Origin: Dehalococcoidia bacterium
Lineage (GTDB): Bacteria > Chloroflexota > Dehalococcoidia > Dehalococcoidales > RBG-16-60-22
DNA: 64,000 bases
Reading direction: 5' to 3'
Assembly: GCA_003141235.1 (NCBI GenBank)
Contig: PLLL01000092.1
Location: 1,891 to 65,890, forward strand
Position numbers and translations under genes: made by a program. Shown piece by piece: positions 1 through 28,453 of this stretch (within the stretch, counting starts at the first letter, position 1; each line of letters opens with the position of its first letter). The notes below the pieces were generated by a model, which did not search any database, had not been told where the DNA came from, and worked only from the letters and a program-made list of their open reading frames with translations.

Positions 1-513
1 TCCGTCTGTCTGGCCACCGATAAAGATGATGTTATCCTGGTAACGCGTAAGGGGCAGTCAATCTGCTTTGGCGTCTCCAGTCTCAGGGCCGCCTCACGGA
101 CAAGTGGTGGTGTGCGCGGCATGCGCCTATCCGAAGGCGATTCCATCATCAGCATGGACCGGATTGACCCGGAGAGTAACCTGCTGGTGGTTTCCGAGAA
201 AGGCTACGGCAAAATTACGCCGCTATCTGAATACCCGCGGCAGCACCGCGGCGGCGGCGGCGTGAGAACCTTCAAAATCGTTGATAAAACTGGTGCCGTA
301 ACTGCCGCCAGGGTTGTCAATGAAAAAATGCAGGTGATGCTGGTCTCCGCCGAGGGCATGATTACCCTGACCCCGATTAAGGAAAAGGACCCGCGGCAGG
401 GCATCACTACCCAGGGCCGGAGCACGCAGGGCGTCCGGGTCATGGCGCTCGATGAAGGCGATAGACTGGTAGCTATTACCACCCTGGTAGCTATTACCGC
501 CTTTGAAGAGTAA
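1..513 (+). CDS. gyrA: DNA gyrase subunit A, C-terminal beta-pinwheel region (5' end cut by window edge)
   Basis: Frame 1 is open from base 1 (SVCLATDKDDVILVTRKGQSICF...GVRGMRLSEGDSIISMD...SEKGYGKITPLSEYPRQHRGGGGVRTFK...) to the stop at 511-513. The repeated GyrA-CTD blade pattern is present. No start codon lies in the window. Confidence 0.85.
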   Translation, partial: SVCLATDKDDVILVTRKGQSICFGVSSLRAASRTSGGVRGMRLSEGDSIISMDRIDPESNLLVVSEKGYGKITPLSEYPRQHRGGGGVRTFKIVDKTGAVTAARVVNEKMQVMLVSAEGMITLTPIKEKDPRQGITTQGRSTQGVRVMALDEGDRLVAITTLVAITAFEE

Positions 514-540
514 ACCGCTTCACATCAGGTTGATGAAATC

Positions 541-1743: not shown

Positions 1744-2454
1744 CTACGCTTCTGTATTCTCCCTAAATCTTTGCATAATTCTAGGTTCCGAAAGCAATTC
1801 TTTTGGAGTGTTCACCAATGGTCGCCTATCAGACACGAAGCTTTCTACCATTTGCTCACAGTTATTATAGAAATCCGCGTTTGTCGCCCATGCATACTTA
1901 GGAGAAATCTTTAAACCATGCGATATCCAAAATGGCGCTTGTTGTTCGTAATAAATTCGTTCCATGTCTGATGCCTTCTCTGCTTCTTTTGGATAGAGTA
2001 ATCCCCAAATGAGTCCTTGTGCAAACGCCCCTGTGTAGTGAGGGGCTAATCTAGGATCACCCAGAGATTGCCACGGAATAGATTCCCGGCCCATGTCTGC
2101 CAAAGAAGGTGGCGCAATTGCTTGACATGGTCGCTTATTACAATTGGTTACAATGCGTTGGTTCGGGTCAATAGAGTTGAGAAGCTTAGTAGCACTATCT
2201 CCTGACCAGTCACGCAATTGAAAACTATCGGCAAGTGCGTGTACTGCTAAAGCTGGCCGTCCAACTCCGAGACCGATACCAATCTGAATTAAAATCTGTA
2301 CTGCAGAGTCTACCGCCCTTGTATTAACTTCTGCTTTTTTCCCGAACTTTTTTTGAGGAAAACCCATATTCCGCAATAACTGTGCTAAGATGAATTGTGC
2401 CAAGACGTATAGAGATGTGATTGAAGCGTGTTCATTTTTGATGTCTGATACCAT
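1744..2454 (-). CDS. hypothetical protein (236 aa)
   Basis: Long ORF with its own promoter. I recognise no family. It lies in the same AT-richer island as 691..1595. Confidence 0.6.
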   Translation of the reverse strand: MVSDIKNEHASITSLYVLAQFILAQLLRNMGFPQKKFGKKAEVNTRAVDSAVQILIQIGIGLGVGRPALAVHALADSFQLRDWSGDSATKLLNSIDPNQRIVTNCNKRPCQAIAPPSLADMGRESIPWQSLGDPRLAPHYTGAFAQGLIWGLLYPKEAEKASDMERIYYEQQAPFWISHGLKISPKYAWATNADFYNNCEQMVESFVSDRRPLVNTPKELLSEPRIMQRFRENTEA

Positions 2455-2672: not shown

Positions 2673-4484
2673 TTATCCCCGTCGCTTATTCAGGCAACTT
2701 TCTGTTTGCTCCAGGCCGCAGGTGTTACAGGCGCTTATACGGCAATCGGGAGTATCCCGTTCTTCTAAAGCGCGCCGGAGTTCCTGTTTCAAGAATGCTT
2801 CACTTACTCCCGCATCGATATGAGACCAGGGGAGTACTTCGTCCGTGGAACGTTCGCGGTAAGCGTAGAAACCGGGTTCCAGTCCGGCATCCGCAAAGGC
2901 TTGCAGCCATTTTTCGTGGTTATAGTGTTCCGTCCACGCATCGAACCTGCACCCCAGTTCCCAGGCGCGGTATATCGCTTTACCGGTGCGCCGGTCGCCT
3001 CGTGACAGGGCGGCCTCCAGCAGGCCGATTCTGGGGTCATGCCAGGAAAACTTGACGCCTTTGATGTTAAGTCCCTGGCGTAGTATTTCCAGCCTGGGAT
3101 GTAACGCCTGCTCATCCAGACGGGCGGCCCACTGGAAGGGTGTGTGTGGCTTGGGGACAAACGTGGATACGCTTACTCTTATCATCGGTTTTTTGCCGCT
3201 GGCCTTTTTACCCTCGGCGCGCACCTTATCCACCAGGGCGACGATGCTCTGGACGTCCTCGAGGGTCTCGGTGGGCAGGCCAATCATAAAATAGAGCTTG
3301 AGGCTGGTCCAGCCGCGCGTGAAGGCGGTGGCGGCTGTTTTTAAAAGACTTTCGTCCGTGATGTTTTTATTGATGACGCGCCGCAGTCTCTCGCTGCCCG
3401 CTTCGGGGGCGAAGGTAAGCCCGGTGCGGCTGCGCGTTGGGAGCGACTCGACGAGCTTGATGGAGAAATCATCTAATCGCAGGCTTGGCAAAGACAGGGT
3501 TAAATTCGGATAGCGCTGGTTCATTTTGGCCACGAGCTTATCGATATCGGCGTAATCCGTGGTATTCAGTGAGACCAGCGAGACCTCGTCATAGCCGCAG
3601 TTGGCAACAAGCTCGCCGGATGCGTCGATTACCTCATCATGGGGACGCTCGCGCACCGGGCGGTAAATCATACCGGCCTGGCAGAAGCGGCAGCCGCGAC
3701 TGCACCCGCGCTGGACCTCGATGGCGGCGCGGTCGTGGACGACCTCGATAAAAGGCACAACCGGCCGCGTTGGGGGCGGCGGCAGTTTGGTGACGATGCG
3801 CTTTTGTATGCGCGGGCTGGCCTCGGAAACGGTGGGGGTAACGCTTTTAATCAGACCGTCTGAATGATATTCGACTTGATACAGGGAGGGGACATAGACG
3901 CCGGGAATCGCCGCCAGCTTTTTAAGAAGTTGTTGCTTCGCTACGCCTTTTCCCTCGCGGTAGGCATCGAGGAACTCAATCAGGACTTCCTCTCCATCGC
4001 CGATAACGAAGGCATCGATGAAGTCGGACATAGGTTCGGGGTTATGACAGCTGCTGCCTCCGGCGATTATCAGGGGGTGGGAGTCGTCCCTATCTACAGC
4101 GCGGACGGGTATTCCGGCCAGGTCGAGCATGTTGAGGACATTGGTGTAGGAAAGCTCGTAGCCGAGCGAGAAACCGATGATATCGAAGTCTTTGAGGGGG
4201 CGCTGGTTTTCCAGGCTGAAGAGGGGAATGCCGCGCTGTCGCATTAAGGCTTCCATGTCCACCCAGGGAGTGTAAACCCTCTCGGCGAGAGTGTCCGGCT
4301 GGCGGTTGAGGATATCGTAAAGGATGGGGACGGCCATGTTAGACATGCCGATTTCGTACGTGTCCGGGTAGGCGAGGGCTATCCTGACGGGGGTTTTAGC
4401 CCAGTCTTTGACGATGCTGTTCCACTCGCCGCCGGTATAGCGGGCGGGACGGTTGACCTGGTGAAGTATCTCGTTGTTGAGCAA
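2673..4484 (-). CDS. B12-binding-domain radical SAM protein (TIGR03960-like)
   Basis: 603 aa with the N-terminus LNNEILHQVNRPARYTGGEWN typical of this family and the CxxxCxxC motif QRGCSRGCRFCQAG. TTG start with a GGAGG 7 nt upstream. Confidence 0.85.
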   Translation of the reverse strand: MLNNEILHQVNRPARYTGGEWNSIVKDWAKTPVRIALAYPDTYEIGMSNMAVPILYDILNRQPDTLAERVYTPWVDMEALMRQRGIPLFSLENQRPLKDFDIIGFSLGYELSYTNVLNMLDLAGIPVRAVDRDDSHPLIIAGGSSCHNPEPMSDFIDAFVIGDGEEVLIEFLDAYREGKGVAKQQLLKKLAAIPGVYVPSLYQVEYHSDGLIKSVTPTVSEASPRIQKRIVTKLPPPPTRPVVPFIEVVHDRAAIEVQRGCSRGCRFCQAGMIYRPVRERPHDEVIDASGELVANCGYDEVSLVSLNTTDYADIDKLVAKMNQRYPNLTLSLPSLRLDDFSIKLVESLPTRSRTGLTFAPEAGSERLRRVINKNITDESLLKTAATAFTRGWTSLKLYFMIGLPTETLEDVQSIVALVDKVRAEGKKASGKKPMIRVSVSTFVPKPHTPFQWAARLDEQALHPRLEILRQGLNIKGVKFSWHDPRIGLLEAALSRGDRRTGKAIYRAWELGCRFDAWTEHYNHEKWLQAFADAGLEPGFYAYRERSTDEVLPWSHIDAGVSEAFLKQELRRALEERDTPDCRISACNTCGLEQTESCLNKRRG

Positions 4485-6154: not shown

Positions 6155-8098
6155 CTACACCTCGCGGAACTCGCCTTCCACGGTGCCTTCGTCTTTAGGG
6201 GCTTCGCCGCCCTGGCCGCCCTCGCCTCCCGGTGGGGGAGGAGGAGCCTGCTCGCCGCCGGGCGGAGGTGGCGGTGGCTGCTGCTTGCTGTAAATGGCTT
6301 GCCCAATCTTCTGCATGGACTCGTTCAGGGCCTGTGTCGCGCTCTTGATAGCGCCAGTGTCCGCGCCCTTTAAAGCTTCCTTGACCGCGGCAACCTTGCT
6401 TTCTACTTCACTGTTAAGGTCGGCGGGAATTTTATCCTTGTTTTCGCGCAGGGTCTTTTCCGCCTGGTAGGACATCGTGTCGGCCGTGTTCTTGGACTCG
6501 ATATCATCCTTGCGTTTGACGTCTTCCGACGCGTGCAGTTCCGCCTCTTTCTGCATCTTGTTTACTTCTTCTTTGGAGAGGCCGCTGGAGGCGGTAATCG
6601 TTATCTTCTGCTCCTTGCCGGTGCCTTTGTCCTGGGCGCGCACATTAAGAATGCCGTTGGCATCGAGGTCGAAAGTGACCTCGATTTGCGGCACACCGCG
6701 CGGCGCCGGTAAGATACCGTCGAGCATAAAGCGCCCGAGCGTCCTATTATCATTGGCCATAGGCCGTTCGCCCTGGAGCACATGGATTTCCACACCCGGC
6801 TGGCTATCTGCCGCCGTGCTGAAAATCTGGCTCTTGGCGGTGGGGATGGTAGTATTGCGCGGGATAAGCGGCGTGGCTACCCCGCCGAGCGTCTCGATGC
6901 CCAGGGTCAGCGGCGTCACATCGAGCAACAGCACGTCCTTGACCTCGCCCTTGAGCACGCCACCCTGAATAGCGGCGCCGATGGCTACCACTTCGTCCGG
7001 GTTGACGCTCTTGTTCGGCTCTTTGCCGAAGAACTGTTTCACTTTATCCTGCACGATCGGCATACGGGTCTGTCCGCCCACGAGGATGACCTCGTCAATC
7101 TGGGCGGTCGTCTTACCGGCATCGGTCAGCGCCTGCTTGCACGGCCCCAGGGACTTTTCCACCAGGTCCAGCACCAGCTGCTCCAGCTTGGCGCGGGTCA
7201 GATTGATATTGAGATGTTTAGGGCCGCTGGCGTCGGCGGTGATAAAGGGGAGGTTGACATCCGTCTGCTGGACGCTGGAAAGCTCAATCTTGGCTTTCTC
7301 GGCGGCCTCTTTAATGCGCTGTAAGGCCATTTTATCTTTGCTGAGGTCGATGCCCTGGTCTTTCCTGAACTCGGCAATCAGCCAGTCCATAATCCTCTGG
7401 TCAAAGTCGTCGCCGCCCAGGTGGGTATCGCCGTTGGTGGACTTCACCTGGAAAGTGCCTTCGCCCAGTTCGAGCACAGATATATCGAAAGTACCGCCGC
7501 CGAGGTCGTAGACAGCGACGGTTTCGTCCTTCCTCTTATCGAGTCCGTAGGCCAGCGCCGCCGCTGTGGGCTCGTTGATAATGCGCAGCACGTTCAGTCC
7601 GGCGATGGCTCCGGCGTCTTTAGTGGCCTGGCGCTGGGCGTCGTTAAAGTAGGCCGGCACGGTAATGACGGCGTCAGTCACCTTTTCCCCAAGATAAGCC
7701 TCGGCATCGGTCTTGAGCTTTTGCAGAATCATCGCCGAGATTTCCGGCGGGCTGTATTCCTTACCGCCCATCAGCACTTTGACTTCATTGTTGCCGCCTT
7801 TGGTCACTTTATAGGTCTTGCGCCGGGCGTCTTCCTCAACGGGCAGCTCGCGTCCGGCGGGCTCGCCCCATTTGCGTCCCATAAAGCGTTTGATACTATA
7901 GATGGTGTTTTCCGGGTTGGTGATGGCCTGCCGCTTGGCTATCTGGCCCACCAGCCGTTCGCCGTTTTTACTGACGGCCACTACCGAAGGGAAAAGGCGG
8001 CTGCCTTCGGAGCTGGTAATAACGACCGGCTCGCCTCCCTCCAGAATTGCCACCTCGCTGAAAGTAGTACCTAAATCAATTCCAACTGTCTTTCCCAT
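6155..8098 (-). CDS. dnaK: molecular chaperone DnaK (Hsp70)
   Basis: [16 protein letters not shown]..., [10 protein letters not shown] and [11 protein letters not shown] are canonical Hsp70 motifs. 647 aa with a Pro/Gly-rich C-terminal tail. Confidence 0.97.
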
Positions 8099-22179: not shown

Positions 22180-24099
22180 TTACTTTGCCAGTCCCTGCTT
22201 TTGCAGGTCGGCGGCGATATCGCCGAGCTGCAGCTCTTCCAATCTGGCTTTGGTCGGCAGGCCGTTTACATCCCAGCCGCGTAACGCGTAATATTCATCC
22301 TTCATCTTTTCAAAAGCTTCCCGTTCGACGGTCTTTCCCTCGCGGGAAAGCACTTCTCCATCGCGTCCCGGCGTCAGGCAATCCCTGGAAATGAACAGCT
22401 CGCCCTTGCGCAGGGGCACTTCAAAAAGATAATCCAGCAGGCGGTCGTCTTTGCGCCCCGCCCATCCCTGGCGGAGCTGTATCGCCCTCTGGAGATTGAA
22501 GATTTTTTCACCGATTTTAATGAAACCGGCTTCGTCCGTTTCTTTTCCCGTAATCGCCGTATAAATCTGGTTTTCCAGGGTGGGGTCGCCGACATGCCCG
22601 CCTTCGTATTTTGCCCAAATCATCGGCCACCTGAAATCACACAGGACGAGGCTTTCCTTGGTGTAAGTGCGGTCCTGGATTTTTTTGGCTGCCAGGGCTT
22701 TGCCGGCGTAGGTCGAGAAGTCAGCCGCCAGTTCGCTGCCCCAATACCTTTTGGCGGCCTCGCGGAAATCAGCGGTAGTGAAAAAAGCGTTTTGCTGCTT
22801 CCCCAGCCAGCCGAGCCACATCCTTAAAATATTGCTTTGCTCATGCAGCTGCTGTATCGGCCTTCTCGACTCGGTGGCATAGAGCAGCCCCGAGGTAATA
22901 AAAAGCCTCGGGTCGTAGTCCTTGGTCTCGCTCCCACGTGTGGCGACGAACTCGCTTAAAAGTTTTTGCGCGCCTTCGCCGAGGGATGCTGCCGTAGCAA
23001 TAGTGCCCCGAGCCAGCGTATCCCCGAAACCTTCACGGAAAGCTATCTTTCCGGTCAGCGACTCAATAAACTCTGCGCTACCGAACTTCGACAGCGGCAG
23101 GCAGGCTGCCTCTTCACTTAAAATGCCTTCGCGGTAACACGCGCCGACTAAATCGATAAGGCCCTGCATCACGGCGGAATCGAGTCCGTAAGCGTCGCAA
23201 AGTTGAGTGGCCAGCTGCTGCACCTCTATTTTGGGGCCGGAGTAAGCCTTGACCGGTTGTTCGTAGAGGATAGTCGCCTGGCACAGCGACTTGTAGCTGC
23301 GTCCATCTTTACCGGAATACACCTGGCGGTCACACCCGAGGCCGCACCCGTAGCAGGCCTGGGGCCTGGTCACTCCCGGGATTTCCCACGGCCTGGGACC
23401 AGCTTTGTAATCCCGCATCTTCCGGACATGGTCGGCGAGAAGTCTCAGCGCGGCCGGGTCGGCGGCGGACGGCTTTTTTTCACCGGCTACCACGATAGCT
23501 TTCAGGTTTTTCGAACCCATAGTGCTGCCGATGCCGCCGGAGCCGGAAGCACCCTGTTCCGCGAAAATGGTAGCAAAAGCGATACCGTTCTCCGCGGCGG
23601 GGCCGATAGTCAGCACGCTGGCGCTTTTGCCGAGTTCCGCTTTCAAGAGGTCAACCGTTTCAAAGGTGGTCTTGCCCCACAGGTGAGAAGCATCTTTAAT
23701 TTCTACAGCGCCGTCATGTATCCAGAGATATACAGGTTTCTCCGCTTTACCCTGCACGGCGATGCCGTCATAGCCGGCGTATTTGAGCCGGACGCCCCAC
23801 CCTCCGCCCAGGTTGCTGTAGGTAAAAGCTTCCTGGTCTAATAGGGCCGATTTACCGCAGGCAACCCAGCGGCCGCCGGCAAACCCGGGAAAACCGGCTA
23901 CGGGGCCGCTGGCGCAGATAAAGCAGTTCTCCGGGTCGGCCACTTTAGCGTTGGGCGGCACCATTTCCCAGTAGAGCCGGGCGGCGATACCGCGCCCGCC
24001 GATATACTTATCCGCATAATTGGAGGTAGGTAATTTTGTTATTTTACCATCGGACAGGTCAACTTTTAATATCTCTCCGGCGTAGCCGAAATCAGGCAT
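22180..24099 (-). CDS. aldehyde:ferredoxin oxidoreductase (AOR) family tungsten/molybdopterin enzyme
   Basis: The N-terminal GYAGEILKVDLSDGKI...YIGGRGIAARL and the 4Fe-4S ligand motif CYGCGLGC are typical of the AOR family. 639 aa. Confidence 0.9.
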   Translation of the reverse strand: MPDFGYAGEILKVDLSDGKITKLPTSNYADKYIGGRGIAARLYWEMVPPNAKVADPENCFICASGPVAGFPGFAGGRWVACGKSALLDQEAFTYSNLGGGWGVRLKYAGYDGIAVQGKAEKPVYLWIHDGAVEIKDASHLWGKTTFETVDLLKAELGKSASVLTIGPAAENGIAFATIFAEQGASGSGGIGSTMGSKNLKAIVVAGEKKPSAADPAALRLLADHVRKMRDYKAGPRPWEIPGVTRPQACYGCGLGCDRQVYSGKDGRSYKSLCQATILYEQPVKAYSGPKIEVQQLATQLCDAYGLDSAVMQGLIDLVGACYREGILSEEAACLPLSKFGSAEFIESLTGKIAFREGFGDTLARGTIATAASLGEGAQKLLSEFVATRGSETKDYDPRLFITSGLLYATESRRPIQQLHEQSNILRMWLGWLGKQQNAFFTTADFREAAKRYWGSELAADFSTYAGKALAAKKIQDRTYTKESLVLCDFRWPMIWAKYEGGHVGDPTLENQIYTAITGKETDEAGFIKIGEKIFNLQRAIQLRQGWAGRKDDRLLDYLFEVPLRKGELFISRDCLTPGRDGEVLSREGKTVEREAFEKMKDEYYALRGWDVNGLPTKARLEELQLGDIAADLQKQGLAK

Positions 24100-25151: not shown

Positions 25152-27008
25152 ATGGCACATGGTTTCATGGGTAAAATTCTCTGGGTAGACCTTACTAAAA
25201 AGAAAATCAAGGAAGAAGAGCTTGACGAGAAGATGTGGCGGGATTATCTGGGCGGCTACGGCCTGGGCGCAAGGATTCTGTTCGACCGGCAGAAACCCGG
25301 CGTCGACCCGCTGGGGAAGGATAATATCCTGGGACTGGTGACGGGCGTGCTGACCGGCACTCCGGCGCTCGGCGGTTCACGCTATATCATGGTCGGAAAA
25401 TCGCCGCTGACCGGCGGCTGGGGCGATGCCAACTCCGGCGGCAATGTCGGGCCTGCCCTGAAATTCGCCGGCTACGATGCGGTTTTCTTCACCGGTAAAT
25501 CGGATAAACCGGTCTATCTCTTTATTAATAACGGCAAGGCCGAGATAAAAGACGCCGCTAAAATCTGGGGCAAAGACACCTTCGAGACCGAAGATATTTT
25601 AAGGGCTGAACTGGGTAAAGACGTCGAAATCGCCTGCATCGGCCCGTCGGGTGAAAAGCTGGCCCTCACCGCCGCGGTCATGAACAATAAAGGCCGCGCC
25701 GCCGCGCGTTCCGGCCTGGCCGCGGTCATGGGTTCCAAGAAGCTCAAGGCCATCGCCTTAAAAGGCAACATGAAAATACCCATGCCTGATGAGCAAAAGG
25801 CCAGCGAAATGAGGAAAAACCTCATCGCGAATATGAGACCAAGCGCAAAATTCGTGAGCGATTTCGGCACGCCGGGCATTTTCAATCCGTGTGTTGAATC
25901 CGATGACGCCCCGTGCAAGAACTGGGCCGGTGTAACTACCATCGACTTCCCACAGTATAAGGACATCGGCGGCCAGCCGACGATTGCTAAACAGGAAAAG
26001 AAATACGGCTGCTGGCATTGCCCCATCGCCTGCGGCGGGCACATGAAAGCCAGCACCGGCGAATACAAATATGAAGCCGGCGCCCATAAGCCCGAGTACG
26101 AAACGCTCGCCATGTTCGGCAGCAACCTCCTTAACGATAACCTGGAATCGATTATCAAGCTCAACGATATCTGCAACCGCTACGGCCTGGATACCATTTC
26201 GGCGGGCGCATGTATCGCCTTCACCATCGAATGCTACGAGAATGGCATTCTCACGAAGAAAGACACCGATGGACTGGAGATGAAGTGGGGCAATACCAAA
26301 GCCATCGTGGCCATGACAGAAAAGCTGGCCAAACGAGAAGGTTTCGGCAATATTCTGGCTGACGGCGTTAAAATCGCCGCCAAGAAAATCGGCAAAGGCT
26401 CGGAAAAGTATGCCATGCATGTCGGCGGCGAAGAGATTGCAGCCCACGATACAAGAGGAGGCCCCGGCTTTGCCATCGGCTACGGCGCGGAGCCGACCCC
26501 GGGGCGGCATACCCAGGGTGGCGAAGGCCCGCATCCGCCCGGCGTGATGATTGAACCCCCCGGCTTTGACCGCGGCGCCTATAAAGGACGCGGACAGTAC
26601 CATAAGCGCGGCGCCTGCGTATGTGAAGTATATAACGCTGCAGGCATCTGCATGATTGTCTTCGGAGATGGCTACGGCAATCTAGGCCAGTTTGTCGAAG
26701 CGATGCAGACCATCACCGGCTGGGATATAACCATGGATGAACTCCTCAAAACAGGTGAAAGAATATATAACATACGGCTGGCTTTTAACGCCCGCGAAGG
26801 CCTGAAAATACCGTTCGAACTACCTGAAAGGATGATGGGTATACCTCCCAAGAAAGTCGGCCCGCGCGCCGGCATCACCATGAACAAAGAGGATACGTTT
26901 AACGAGTATCTCGAAGCGATGGGTGTGGATTTAAAGGCAGGCAAGCCGGGTAAGAAGAGGCTCGAAGAGCTAGGTATGGCGGATGTCGCTAAAGTGCTCT
27001 GGAAATAA
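25152..27008 (+). CDS. aldehyde:ferredoxin oxidoreductase (AOR) family enzyme, second paralog
   Basis: GFMGKILWVDLTKKKI...YLGGYGLGARI and the motif CWHCPIAC. 618 aa. Confidence 0.9.
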   Translation: MAHGFMGKILWVDLTKKKIKEEELDEKMWRDYLGGYGLGARILFDRQKPGVDPLGKDNILGLVTGVLTGTPALGGSRYIMVGKSPLTGGWGDANSGGNVGPALKFAGYDAVFFTGKSDKPVYLFINNGKAEIKDAAKIWGKDTFETEDILRAELGKDVEIACIGPSGEKLALTAAVMNNKGRAAARSGLAAVMGSKKLKAIALKGNMKIPMPDEQKASEMRKNLIANMRPSAKFVSDFGTPGIFNPCVESDDAPCKNWAGVTTIDFPQYKDIGGQPTIAKQEKKYGCWHCPIACGGHMKASTGEYKYEAGAHKPEYETLAMFGSNLLNDNLESIIKLNDICNRYGLDTISAGACIAFTIECYENGILTKKDTDGLEMKWGNTKAIVAMTEKLAKREGFGNILADGVKIAAKKIGKGSEKYAMHVGGEEIAAHDTRGGPGFAIGYGAEPTPGRHTQGGEGPHPPGVMIEPPGFDRGAYKGRGQYHKRGACVCEVYNAAGICMIVFGDGYGNLGQFVEAMQTITGWDITMDELLKTGERIYNIRLAFNAREGLKIPFELPERMMGIPPKKVGPRAGITMNKEDTFNEYLEAMGVDLKAGKPGKKRLEELGMADVAKVLWK

Positions 27009-27033: not shown

Positions 27034-27060
27034 CGAGGCCTCCTGCATAAGGGGGCCTCG
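27034..27060 (+). terminator. terminator hairpin after AOR paralog 2
   Basis: CGAGGCCTCC(27034-43)/GGGGGCCTCG(27051-60) with a 7-nt loop, followed by CTGTTTAATATT. Confidence 0.55.
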
Positions 27061-27080: not shown

Positions 27081-27109
27081 TTGAAAATCATAGCTATTTA
27101 TGATATAAT
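27081..27109 (+). promoter_or_regulatory. promoter driving the fluoride riboswitch leader
   Basis: TTGAAA (27081-86), 17 nt, TATAAT (27104-09). Confidence 0.7.
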
Positions 27110-27117
27110 ATATAAAG

Positions 27118-27188
27118 TGGCGATGAAGCTCGCCCAGGACTGTTGACAGCTTCCTGAACCGCTTAAACAAGGCTGATAGCTTCTACTG
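27118..27188 (+). promoter_or_regulatory. fluoride riboswitch aptamer (crcB RNA motif)
   Basis: GGCGAUGAAGCUCGCC...GGCUGAUAGCUUCUACUG parallels the Thermotoga petrophila aptamer GGCGAUGAGGCCCGCC...GGCUGAUGGCCUCUACUG. The pseudoknot pair co-varies (GAAGCU/AGCUUC here, GAGGCC/GGCCUC there). The central helix is longer than in the reference and I could not fold it confidently. Confidence 0.75.
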
Positions 27189-27213
27189 ACCCCAGTACGG
27201 TAGAAGCTTTTTT
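27178..27213 (+). terminator. riboswitch expression-platform intrinsic terminator
   Basis: AGCTTCTAC(27178-86)/GTAGAAGCT(27200-08) is followed by a run of T through 27213. The 5' arm is the same sequence the aptamer needs for its pseudoknot, so the two structures are mutually exclusive. Confidence 0.75.
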
Positions 27214-27259
27214 ATTGCCTGCCGTTGCGGGGTATTCCGAAATAACGGGAGGCAACAAA

Positions 27260-28453
27260 ATGAGTGATAGTCTCATCCCTCTAGTCATGGGAGTCATCGT
27301 TCTCGCCGCCAGTCTCGTTTCGCTAAAATTGGGATTATCAGTAGCCATCATTGAGATTATTCTTGGAGCAGTCGGCGGTTCTCTAGGTCTGCATACGCAG
27401 GACTGGATGACCTACTTGGCAAGCTTCGGTGGTATCATTCTAACTTTTCTTGCGGGCACCGAGATTGATACCAAATTAATGAAAGAGAAGTTCAAAGAGA
27501 GCTTTCTCATCGGTATTTTTTCCTTTTTAGCTCCTTTCGTGGTTGTAGTCGGGTATACCTACTTCATTGCTCATTGGAGTCTGCAAGCGTCTTTACTGGC
27601 GGGAACAGCCCTTTCCACAACCTCGTTGGCTGTTGTCTATTCCGTACTGGTAGAGACAGGTCTGGCAAAGACTCAAGTTGGCAAATTGCTGATGGCTTCT
27701 ACATTCGTTACGGATATGGGTACAGCACTGGCGTTGAGCATTATATTTATTAAGCCCACGCTATATACCCTGGTATTCATCGTTGTTTCCATTGTGGTTA
27801 TAGTCTTTGCCACCAAGTTCTCTCATCTGGTATTTGATAATCCAAGGCTCAAGAATAAGGTCGTGGAGCCGGAAATCAAGTACCTGTTCCTACTACTGCT
27901 TGCTTTTATGTATTTTGCCCAGATAGGCGATGGTCAGGCTGTCTTGCCTGCATTTATCCTAGGACTGTTAATGTCGCCTCACTTCAGGGAGTCATCGGGC
28001 ACGAAGTCGGTCAGAGACAAGCTGCGCACTGTAGCCTACGCTATAATCACGCCGATTTTCTTCATTGTTGGTGGTTTAAGAGTCTCTTTCCCATTGATTT
28101 TCTCGGCTTTGGGTCTTTTCCTGATTCTGTTTGGTCTGAAACTGGCAAGTAAGTTCGTTGGTGTGTTCTTCCTGTCTAAAAAATATATTCCCCAAGGGGC
28201 TATGTATACAACCCTTTTAATGAGCACTGGTCTTACATTTGGTACTATTGCCAGTGTCTTCGGGCTGACCTCCGGAATCATCAACCAGGTACAGTATTCC
28301 TTGCTGGTTGGCGTGGTCATCGCCAGTGCTGTGATACCCACGTTTATTGCTCAAAAGTGGTTTATGCCAGCGCATTCTGAAGACTTGGTGGAGTTAAATG
28401 GCAACGAAAACAGCGGTGGAAATGACAGCAAGCGGGTTACAGACAACATTTAA
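27260..28453 (+). CDS. cation:proton antiporter (Na+/H+ exchanger family)
   Basis: About 11 TM helices and the typical CPA N-terminus (LVMGVIVLAASLVS...GAVGG). I place the start at ATG 27260 (GGAGG 7 nt upstream) rather than TTG 27215, which lies next to the terminator U-tract. Confidence 0.8.
   Translation: MSDSLIPLVMGVIVLAASLVSLKLGLSVAIIEIILGAVGGSLGLHTQDWMTYLASFGGIILTFLAGTEIDTKLMKEKFKESFLIGIFSFLAPFVVVVGYTYFIAHWSLQASLLAGTALSTTSLAVVYSVLVETGLAKTQVGKLLMASTFVTDMGTALALSIIFIKPTLYTLVFIVVSIVVIVFATKFSHLVFDNPRLKNKVVEPEIKYLFLLLLAFMYFAQIGDGQAVLPAFILGLLMSPHFRESSGTKSVRDKLRTVAYAIITPIFFIVGGLRVSFPLIFSALGLFLILFGLKLASKFVGVFFLSKKYIPQGAMYTTLLMSTGLTFGTIASVFGLTSGIINQVQYSLLVGVVIASAVIPTFIAQKWFMPAHSEDLVELNGNENSGGNDSKRVTDNI

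Follow-up and report, generated by a model that had tools for sequence, protein, structure and literature searches.

In a 64,000-nucleotide (nt) stretch of contig PLLL01000092.1, from an uncultured bacterium of the Dehalococcoidia type and here referred to as the window, the 5' leader of a monocistronic cation:proton antiporter gene most probably contains a fluoride-activated (ON) riboswitch. We put the probability of this reading at roughly 0.88. It is supported directly by the identity of the aptamer, by the covariation of its pseudoknot, by the overlap of the aptamer with an intrinsic terminator and by the conserved linkage of aptamer and antiporter. The riboswitch is one more member of a well-studied class, and the pairing of this class with antiporters is already known in outline. 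New here are an ion-site motif of the antiporter (Thr-Asp) which tracks the presence of the riboswitch, and a predicted relay from the terminator to the ribosome-binding site.

A cmscan search of the whole window against Rfam 15 identified RF01734 (Fluoride) as the sole family at its gathering score. The match reached 43.3 bits, with the gathering score at 34 and E = 1.1e-08, and spanned model positions 1-64 of 64, so that the aptamer is untruncated. The proposal of a fluoride aptamer with its conserved blocks, made in an earlier note from the letters alone, therefore passed the covariance-model check. Stems P1 and P3 were found by comparing the sequence with the model alignment, and a pseudoknot of six pairs (GAAGCU/AGCUUC) was read directly. 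The P1 loop has the sequence AUGAAGCU and the 3' block of the aptamer the sequence GCUGAUAGCUUCUAC. According to the cmscan alignment, the unpaired blocks GAUG (P1 loop), AACC (linker) and CUGAU (5' of the 3' pseudoknot strand) are all present, and they are invariant or nearly so across an alignment of 71 aptamers. The conserved unpaired blocks of the fluoride aptamer form its ligand-binding site. Judged by its sequence, the RNA is a genuine fluoride riboswitch aptamer.

These 71 aptamers, all located upstream of related antiporters and arranged in an end-anchored MAFFT alignment, also served as the covariation set. A custom covariance model built from 38 canonical aptamers (R1) misaligned the group of the window and was not used for pair counts. 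The six pseudoknot pairs were 99.8% paired and five of the six changed on both sides. P1 and P3 were 98% and 84% paired, respectively, both with two-sided changes. None of 500 shuffles reached the values observed for all 14 pairs of the structure together, and shifting the partners by 1-3 columns lowered pairing from 94.7% to 38-62%.

The forms of the pseudoknot were counted in the 61 of 71 aptamers that could be parsed by regular expressions. All 61 were fully paired, and at least five strand pairs occurred: GGAGU/ACUCC (38 aptamers), the form of the window GAAGC/GCUUC (9), GGCAU/AUGCC (5), GGGGU/ACUCC (5) and GAGGU/ACCUC (4). The compensatory pseudoknot changes claimed in the earlier note were hence borne out. 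Since GAAGC/GCUUC is also present in unrelated fluoride aptamers ahead of other genes, this form is not specific to the group of the window. In a metagenome scan for GGYGATGAAGCTCGCC, eight of 120 stretches were full aptamers, none of them 5' of this antiporter.

Compared with the RF01734 model, the window carries a 19-nt insertion directly after P1, which folds as a separate hairpin in the leader. Within the alignment of 71 aptamers a long insertion at this place was restricted to the group of the window and one other locus. All leaders of the group contain the hairpin, and its stem sequences change while the pairing is kept (CAGGA/UCCUG, CAGGU/ACCUG and GGAAUC/GAUUCC). It gives the impression of a true, lineage-specific accessory helix. 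The earlier note had described a longer central helix; P3 is, however, an ordinary stem of 4 bp and the extra length belongs to the separate hairpin. At 27148-27153 the hairpin contains a second copy of AGCUUC, the hexamer of the 3' pseudoknot strand. This copy was considered as a pseudoknot decoy and rejected; by reading, the motif occurs in 3 of 18 leaders, and the recurrence is probably coincidental.

The 3' strand of the pseudoknot is at the same time the base of a terminator 5' arm that is followed by a U-run. This arrangement had been recognized in the earlier note and matches the transcriptional fluoride riboswitches described before, in which the six-pair pseudoknot and the terminator base share a sequence tract (PMC11077080). 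The length of 9 bp given for the stem did not hold, as there are 11 contiguous pairs, or 13 with a bulge. Folded alone, the terminator hairpin had an energy of -16.2 kcal/mol (z = -5.7), which none of 200 shuffles equalled. It is also part of the minimum-energy fold of the whole leader, in which P1, the extra hairpin, P3 and the terminator lie ahead of the start codon. The terminator is conserved in 17 related leaders. A simple terminator scan of the window did not list the hairpin 27178-27208.

Without fluoride, the 5' arm AGCUUCUACUG (27178-27188) would pair with 27198-27208 and transcription would stop at the U-tract, at position 27213. With fluoride, 27178-27183 would be locked in the pseudoknot with the P1 loop, as in characterised members of the family. 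A 5' arm held in this way should not allow the terminator to nucleate, and RNA polymerase would read into the gene. Since the 3' pseudoknot strand is shared with the terminator base, fluoride binding should prevent termination. We infer this ON-switch step, and with it the fluoride dependence of the switch, from the anatomy of the leader and from the characterised family members. The leader resembles the transcriptional RF01734 riboswitches of Bacillus cereus crcB and Thermotoga petrophila in its P1, P3 and six-pair pseudoknot, in the GAUG and CUGAU blocks, in the shared terminator base and in the ON logic. It differs from the typical RF01734 member by the 8-bp hairpin after P1 and by its pseudoknot, GAAGCU/AGCUUC instead of the common GGAGU/ACUCC. 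In contrast to the B. cereus and T. petrophila type, it additionally has a conserved hairpin 3' of the terminator which sequesters the Shine-Dalgarno (SD) sequence and which may be coupled to the terminator.

Two points weigh against the assignment. The score of 43.3 bits is in the low part of the range of the gene family (35-67 bits), and both fluoride binding and regulation are attributed to this RNA through its family membership. The lowish score is mainly due to the inserted hairpin and the rarer pseudoknot sequence. The same two features, together with a score below that of most relatives, might mark a decayed copy or a variant of changed specificity that is unresponsive to fluoride. We regard this as highly improbable, since the upper-case Rfam consensus positions outside the covarying pseudoknot are kept (GAUG, AACCGC, GCUGAU and CUAC), the pseudoknot is fully paired and its form is shared with unrelated fluoride aptamers. 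Furthermore, the variant has been kept together with promoter, terminator and gene in 17 related leaders, in which the inserted stem covaries.

The linkage between a fluoride aptamer of this kind and the antiporter extends far beyond the window. A scan of a genome collection gave 80 loci with relatives of the antiporter at 64-90% identity, two of which have no upstream DNA. In Rfam scans, RF01734 was found directly upstream of the antiporter in 70 of the other 78 loci; the more permissive model R1 detected no aptamer in the 8 loci without an Rfam match. According to the record titles, the bacterial relatives belong to Chloroflexi/Dehalococcoidia, Deltaproteobacteria, Gammaproteobacteria, Planctomycetes, Bacteroidota, Ignavibacteria, Acidobacteria, Nitrospinota, Omnitrophota, Spirochaetes and others, and the archaeal relatives to Methanoperedens, Methanobacterium, Halobacteria, Woesearchaeota and others. 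The aptamer is present in 17 of 18 archaeal loci. Eleven further close relatives were analyzed as well. Eight of these, including the isolate Dehalogenimonas alkenigignens, carry an aptamer at gathering score directly upstream; by sequence inspection, two of the remaining three have recognisable variants and one has none.

A more distant homologue of 38% identity is located on 39 plasmids, mostly enterobacterial and 19 of them from Klebsiella. It keeps STTS, VTD and Lys of the antiporter, and RF01734 is found upstream with 59.4 bits. On the Escherichia coli plasmid p027_SK3a the antiporter heads an island of antiporter, UspA, MutS and MutS beside a P-type ATPase, crcB and gpmA, which is similar to the island for fluoride resistance of Enterobacter cloacae FRM (PMC5533749). 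At locus L221 on the E. coli plasmid NZ_CP067312.1 (151812-166951), the antiporter gene comes after the aptamer (locus positions 6777-6837) and precedes UspA and two MutS-like genes. A HAD-type P-type ATPase, crcB and gpmA are encoded on the opposite strand, beside IS30 and a group II intron. Since the plasmid homologue resides in a crcB-encoding island, the antiporter accompanies the Fluc exporter at least there. The idea that the antiporter replaces a fluoride exporter is accordingly argued against, on the plasmid, by crcB in the same island. A crude six-frame signature search of the window found no CrcB-like or CLC-F-like motif.

In the literature, Na+/H+ antiporters are the next-most common gene class of fluoride riboswitches after the exporters, and they are presumed to counter the cytoplasmic acidification resulting from entry of hydrogen fluoride (HF) (PMC11139923). 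To call them a minor associated class, as in the earlier note, is consequently an understatement. According to later papers, the class has been noted since the discovery of the riboswitch. The statement of the earlier note that a role of these antiporters in fluoride resistance is untested agrees with our survey; no functional test of any fluoride-riboswitch-associated antiporter was found in the searchable literature. One described example is CD0656-7 of Clostridioides difficile, an operon of a CLC protein and an NhaP-type antiporter under a fluoride riboswitch (PMC11477304). The window shares with it a PF00999 protein under a fluoride aptamer and a presumed role in pH and ion homeostasis under fluoride stress. 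However, the antiporter is the sole gene of the unit in the window and sits behind the exporter in C. difficile. Additionally, the antiporter of the window belongs to a tight NapA-like Thr-Asp family and that of C. difficile is annotated as NhaP-type, a distinction made by annotation.

The product of the gene matches PF00999 (Na_H_Exchanger) over residues 14-361 with 133.2 bits against a gathering score of 26.2. In Pfam this membrane domain was found alone, with no extra regulatory domain. The regulated protein is thus a PF00999 antiporter and has no Fluc/CrcB or CLC-F identity. With 96.7 bits it remained below the cutoff of 238.3 bits of NCBIfam TIGR00932 (CPA2). NapA of Thermus thermophilus (PDB 4bwz, 5bz2 and 5bz3), an electrogenic CPA2 protein, is the sole solved relative by sequence (residues 18-364; E = 4e-10 for the single sequence and 2e-12 for the clade profile); neither search gave another solved structure at E ≤ 0.01. 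The unwound segment of transmembrane helix 4 (TM4) is similar in both proteins, ALSTTS compared with ALVATS in NapA, and the Lys of TM10 is kept, aligning with Lys298. In contrast to NapA, Thr151-Asp152 replaces the Asp-Asp ion site.

Among 81 family members the Thr at position 151 is invariant (81/81), and so is Lys298. This Thr is followed by Asp in 73 members, by Glu in 3 and by Asn in 5, and TM4 reads ALSTTS in 76. The Asn and a Glu in TM4 (SETS) occur in the same five sequences, which suggests that the carboxylate has moved. An aptamer was present in 69 of 73 loci with STTS and Thr-Asp(Glu) and in one of five loci with SETS and Thr-Asn (Fisher p = 2e-4). The STTS/Thr-Asp motif of the ion site tracks the presence of the riboswitch. 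The SETS sister subgroup (L051, L059, L064, L073 and L080), in which Asn replaces the TM5 Asp, also has a Gln before the TM10 Lys; the residues compared correspond to 117-122, 149-154 and 295-301 of the window's antiporter. In-frame stops seen in several homologues were dismissed as true C-terminal stops overrun by tblastn alignments, with the exception of L080, which has a stop at residue 23.

Electrogenic transport by CPA2 proteins needs two acidic residues and one basic residue (motif positions 6-7 and 8), and small polar residues in the unwound TM4 segment have been linked to K+ selectivity (Masrati et al., PMC6181914). The antiporter of the window has the Lys but Thr151-Asp152 in place of Asp-Asp. 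Under these rules a single carboxylate (Thr-Asp plus Lys) predicts that the antiporter family is electroneutral. The polar TM4 segment would lean towards transport of K+. Public annotation of the relatives is often KefB-type or potassium transporter, which recalls the Kef-type K+/H+ antiporters. As in some Kef and CHX proteins, the first Asp is missing and TM4 has small polar residues; the site residue is, however, Thr and not the Gln or Asn cited for those proteins. For the transported ions and the physiological role we infer that the antiporter would probably serve to redress the imbalance of protons and cations which arises when HF enters the cell. This view is weakened by the fact that the present evidence does not distinguish proton extrusion from uptake or Na+ from K+. 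An AlphaFold model from a 25-sequence alignment had a mean predicted local distance difference test score (pLDDT) of 50.4; it was too poor and was not used.

The antiporter family is sharply defined, with 64-90% identity across distant bacteria and archaea, and is recognisable at 38% identity on enterobacterial plasmids. With it, a defined protein and defined residues become available for experiments on how cells cope with protons and cations in fluoride toxicity. The handling of protons and cations also bears on the engineering of microbes that release fluoride from organofluorine compounds.

The riboswitch unit is bounded on its 5' side by the terminator-like hairpin of the upstream gene, an aldehyde:ferredoxin oxidoreductase that ends at 27008. 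The good promoter which the earlier note had placed ahead of the RNA is indeed near-consensus (Table 1). It agrees with the consensus in 11 of 12 positions, with a TG upstream of TATAAT, and the -35 and -10 positions are kept in 7 related leaders. Transcription is predicted from this sequence to start at about 27116, roughly 3 nt before P1. The layout of promoter, aptamer, terminator and start is common to 7 related Chloroflexi/Dehalococcoidia loci.

Table 1. Features of the riboswitch-antiporter unit, given as positions within the window.
Feature	Position	Strand	Remarks
Terminator-like hairpin of the upstream gene	27034-27060	+	11 pairs, 8 of them G-C; T-rich tail
Sigma-70-type promoter	27081-27109	+	-35 TTGAAA (27081-27086), 17-nt spacer, extended -10 TGaTATAAT (27101-27109)
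Fluoride riboswitch aptamer	27110-27192	+	Full-length RF01734 match
P1 stem-loop	27119-27134	+	G27119-G27122 with C27131-C27134; direct reading, cmscan and fold
5' pseudoknot strand GAAGCU	27125-27130	+	Within the P1 loop; G27125-U27130 with A27178-C27183
Extra lineage-specific hairpin	27135-27156	+	Between P1 and the AACC linker; 8 pairs, internal bulge
P3 stem-loop	27161-27173	+	GCUU (G27161-U27164) with AAGC (A27170-C27173); loop AAACA
3' pseudoknot strand AGCUUC	27178-27183	+	Equals the first six bases of the terminator 5' arm
Intrinsic terminator	27178-27213	+	Stem 27178-27188 with 27198-27208; U-tract 27208-27213
Terminator loop and 3' arm, putative SD mimic	27189-27207	+	16-pair helix with 27217-27233 in the fold; putative role
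Long SD-sequestering hairpin	27210-27260	+	Buries the SD sequence GGGAGG (27247-27252) together with the first start-codon base
Anti-SD segment	27215-27233	+	With the terminator formed, paired to the SD region; otherwise predicted to pair with 27189-27207
Cation:proton antiporter gene	27260-28453	+	397 amino acids (aa); Pfam Na_H_Exchanger; ALSTTS 117-122, VTD 150-152, K298

The start codon had been moved in the earlier note from a TTG at 27215, one base 3' of the U-tract, to the ATG at 27260. This was right. The GGGAGG lies 7 nt upstream of the ATG, homologues of the antiporter align from the Met encoded there, and independent gene calls on four matching metagenome contigs gave the 397-aa product from the same codon. 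The flanking genes differ in nearly every genome that carries the unit, and the ABC transporter gene downstream in the window has its own promoter-like site. For these two reasons, riboswitch and antiporter appear to form a self-contained monocistronic cassette.

The region upstream of the cassette contains two aldehyde:ferredoxin oxidoreductase-like genes, at 22180-24099 (-) and 25152-27008 (+), encoding 639 and 618 aa, respectively, with a short-chain dehydrogenase gene between them. The Pfam checks covered the 618-aa protein and the dehydrogenase. At one related locus (L219) a gene of the aldehyde:ferredoxin oxidoreductase family adjoins the antiporter too.

The riboswitch may act beyond termination. 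The SD-sequestering hairpin appears in the minimum-energy and the centroid fold of the leader, and the pairing of SD and anti-SD is conserved in most related leaders. When the 5' arm of the terminator was omitted and 27189-27275 was folded, the terminator loop and 3' arm instead paired over 16 pairs with the anti-SD (27217-27233). These folds suggest a relay. If the pseudoknot holds the 5' arm, the SD-like segment 27189-27207 would pair with the emerging anti-SD; an anti-SD captured by this SD mimic would leave the ribosome-binding site open. The order of synthesis would suit such a relay, as the anti-SD emerges beside its free partner before the SD is made. On the basis of this modelling we lean, with slightly better than even confidence, towards one aptamer that gates both termination and translation.

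The competing explanation is a purely transcriptional switch with a constitutive SD hairpin, which might for instance serve mRNA stability or damp translation. The complementarity would then be a by-product, given that the 3' arm must pair with the CUAC after the pseudoknot strand and that both the arm and the SD are purine-rich. The cost of opening the ribosome-binding region, expressed as ensemble free energy, was calculated for 18 leaders. With the terminator formed, it was 15.6 kcal/mol in the window and 8.8 kcal/mol on average over the 18 leaders. Blocking seven bases of the pseudoknot strand lowered it to 5.5 and 3.2 kcal/mol, respectively. When the terminator loop and 3' arm were shuffled in addition, the cost was 12.1 ± 3.0 kcal/mol in the window and 7.7 kcal/mol on average. 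In the window, 4 of 100 shuffles were as low as the native sequence. In total, the native segment beat shuffles of the same composition in 11 of the 18 leaders (at most 5 of 100 shuffles as low), which argues against a mere by-product.

An alignment-free test of co-variation compared the pairing of each segment with its own anti-SD and with those of other leaders. For loop plus 3' arm the energies were -22.3 kcal/mol with the own anti-SD and -19.7 kcal/mol with the others, and 1 of 5000 permutations was as low. For the loop alone they were -10.0 and -8.7 kcal/mol, respectively (26 of 5000 permutations). This preference for the own partner likewise speaks against the purely transcriptional switch. 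With the loop-only segment, the two most divergent leaders, those of the window and of D. alkenigignens (L205), each ranked their own partner first among 17. Within the group, conservation of the terminator loop is unusually high, and where the loop differs (window, L205 and L211) the anti-SD region differs to match. In D. alkenigignens the terminator loop GGUAUCUGU is exactly complementary to the downstream ACAGAUACC.

Several observations count against the relay, and some of them support the purely transcriptional switch directly. RNAalifold applied to the segment from terminator loop to anti-SD gave a weak consensus with no shared long helix and no compensatory pairs. Seven of the 18 leaders had no significant drop in opening cost, and one leader (L215) lacks any SD hairpin. 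Characterised transcriptional fluoride riboswitches have been described with a terminator alone (PMC11077080). In the window, moreover, a weak local hairpin takes up part of the SD again, and the unpaired probability of the SD increases only from 0.17 to 0.23. The leaders are related and the tests are consequently not independent, and the pseudoknot was represented in the folding as a block of 7 nt. We therefore treat a switch acting on transcription only as a serious contender, with somewhat less than an even chance.

A third possibility would be a kissing contact between terminator loop and SD hairpin in the OFF state, tightening this state instead of exchanging strands in the ON state. The geometry would permit it in D. 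alkenigignens, in which the loop of the SD hairpin contains ACAGAUACC. The complementary bases of the window and most relatives, however, are in the stem of this hairpin and not in its loop, and the complementarity extends (CGGUAG with CUGCCG) into the 3' arm of the terminator, whose bases are paired in the OFF state. We regard a kissing contact as improbable.

The lysC riboswitch of E. coli is dual-acting, controlling translation and mRNA decay through one aptamer. If real, the relay proposed here would be similar in that one ligand-binding event sets both completion of the transcript and access of the ribosome. It would differ from the dual-acting type by its chain of four pairings that exclude one another (pseudoknot, terminator, SD mimic with anti-SD, anti-SD with SD) and by an SD that is not buried in the terminator. 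Such a relay would show in compact form how a single aptamer can control two steps of expression. In three related leaders an extra GC-rich hairpin (GCCCUCGGGC or longer) is located between U-tract and anti-SD, at the approximate positions L002:2937-2960, L003:2918-2973 and L207:540-563.

A wider interpretation, which we offer tentatively and consider rather doubtful, takes the antiporter as the founding example of a dedicated family of fluoride-defence transporters and not as a generic Na+/H+ antiporter of pH homeostasis. This family, marked by STTS, Thr-Asp and Lys, would have spread horizontally across bacteria, archaea and enterobacterial plasmids, would almost always be wired to the aptamer and would have an activity specific to fluoride stress, with the four-helix relay as a feature of the Dehalococcoidia. 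Electroneutral K+/H+ exchange could in that case possibly lower the pH gradient and so limit the weak-acid trapping of fluoride.

Some features in the neighbourhood of related antiporters were observed in addition. In D. alkenigignens a convergent DUF190 gene (L205:4182-4523, -) starts 12 nt after the antiporter stop. The DUF190 family is often adjacent to crcB; no crcB-like open reading frame (ORF) was seen in the adjoining gap. DUF6062 genes recurrently flank the antiporter (L043:251-712 and 3597-4274; L212:1-538, -). At L043 one of the two copies follows a second fluoride aptamer (140-209) and the other follows the antiporter. On archaeal contigs of the Methanoperedens type, the DUF3800-X RNA (RF02984) was found near antiporter loci (L009:1200-1271, -; L051:678-751, +).

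Further fluoride aptamers were present at several loci. Two Phycisphaerales genomes carry a second one divergent from that of the antiporter (L044:2688-2749, -; L053:2690-2751, -); in L044 it lies upstream of a gene for a 619-aa dynamin-family GTPase, an unusual partner for a fluoride riboswitch. Another aptamer (L035:992-1062, +) is located upstream of a gene of the dihydroxy-acid/6-phosphogluconate dehydratase family, and this gene lies just ahead of the riboswitch-antiporter unit. One metagenome contig (L214) contains three fluoride aptamers within 2.4 kb, at 288-363 (-), 453-535 (+) and 1896-1975 (+). Of these, one is directed towards a MutS-family gene and another lies ahead of the antiporter; the third follows the antiporter and precedes an ORF of 73 aa and a pyruvate phosphate dikinase gene.

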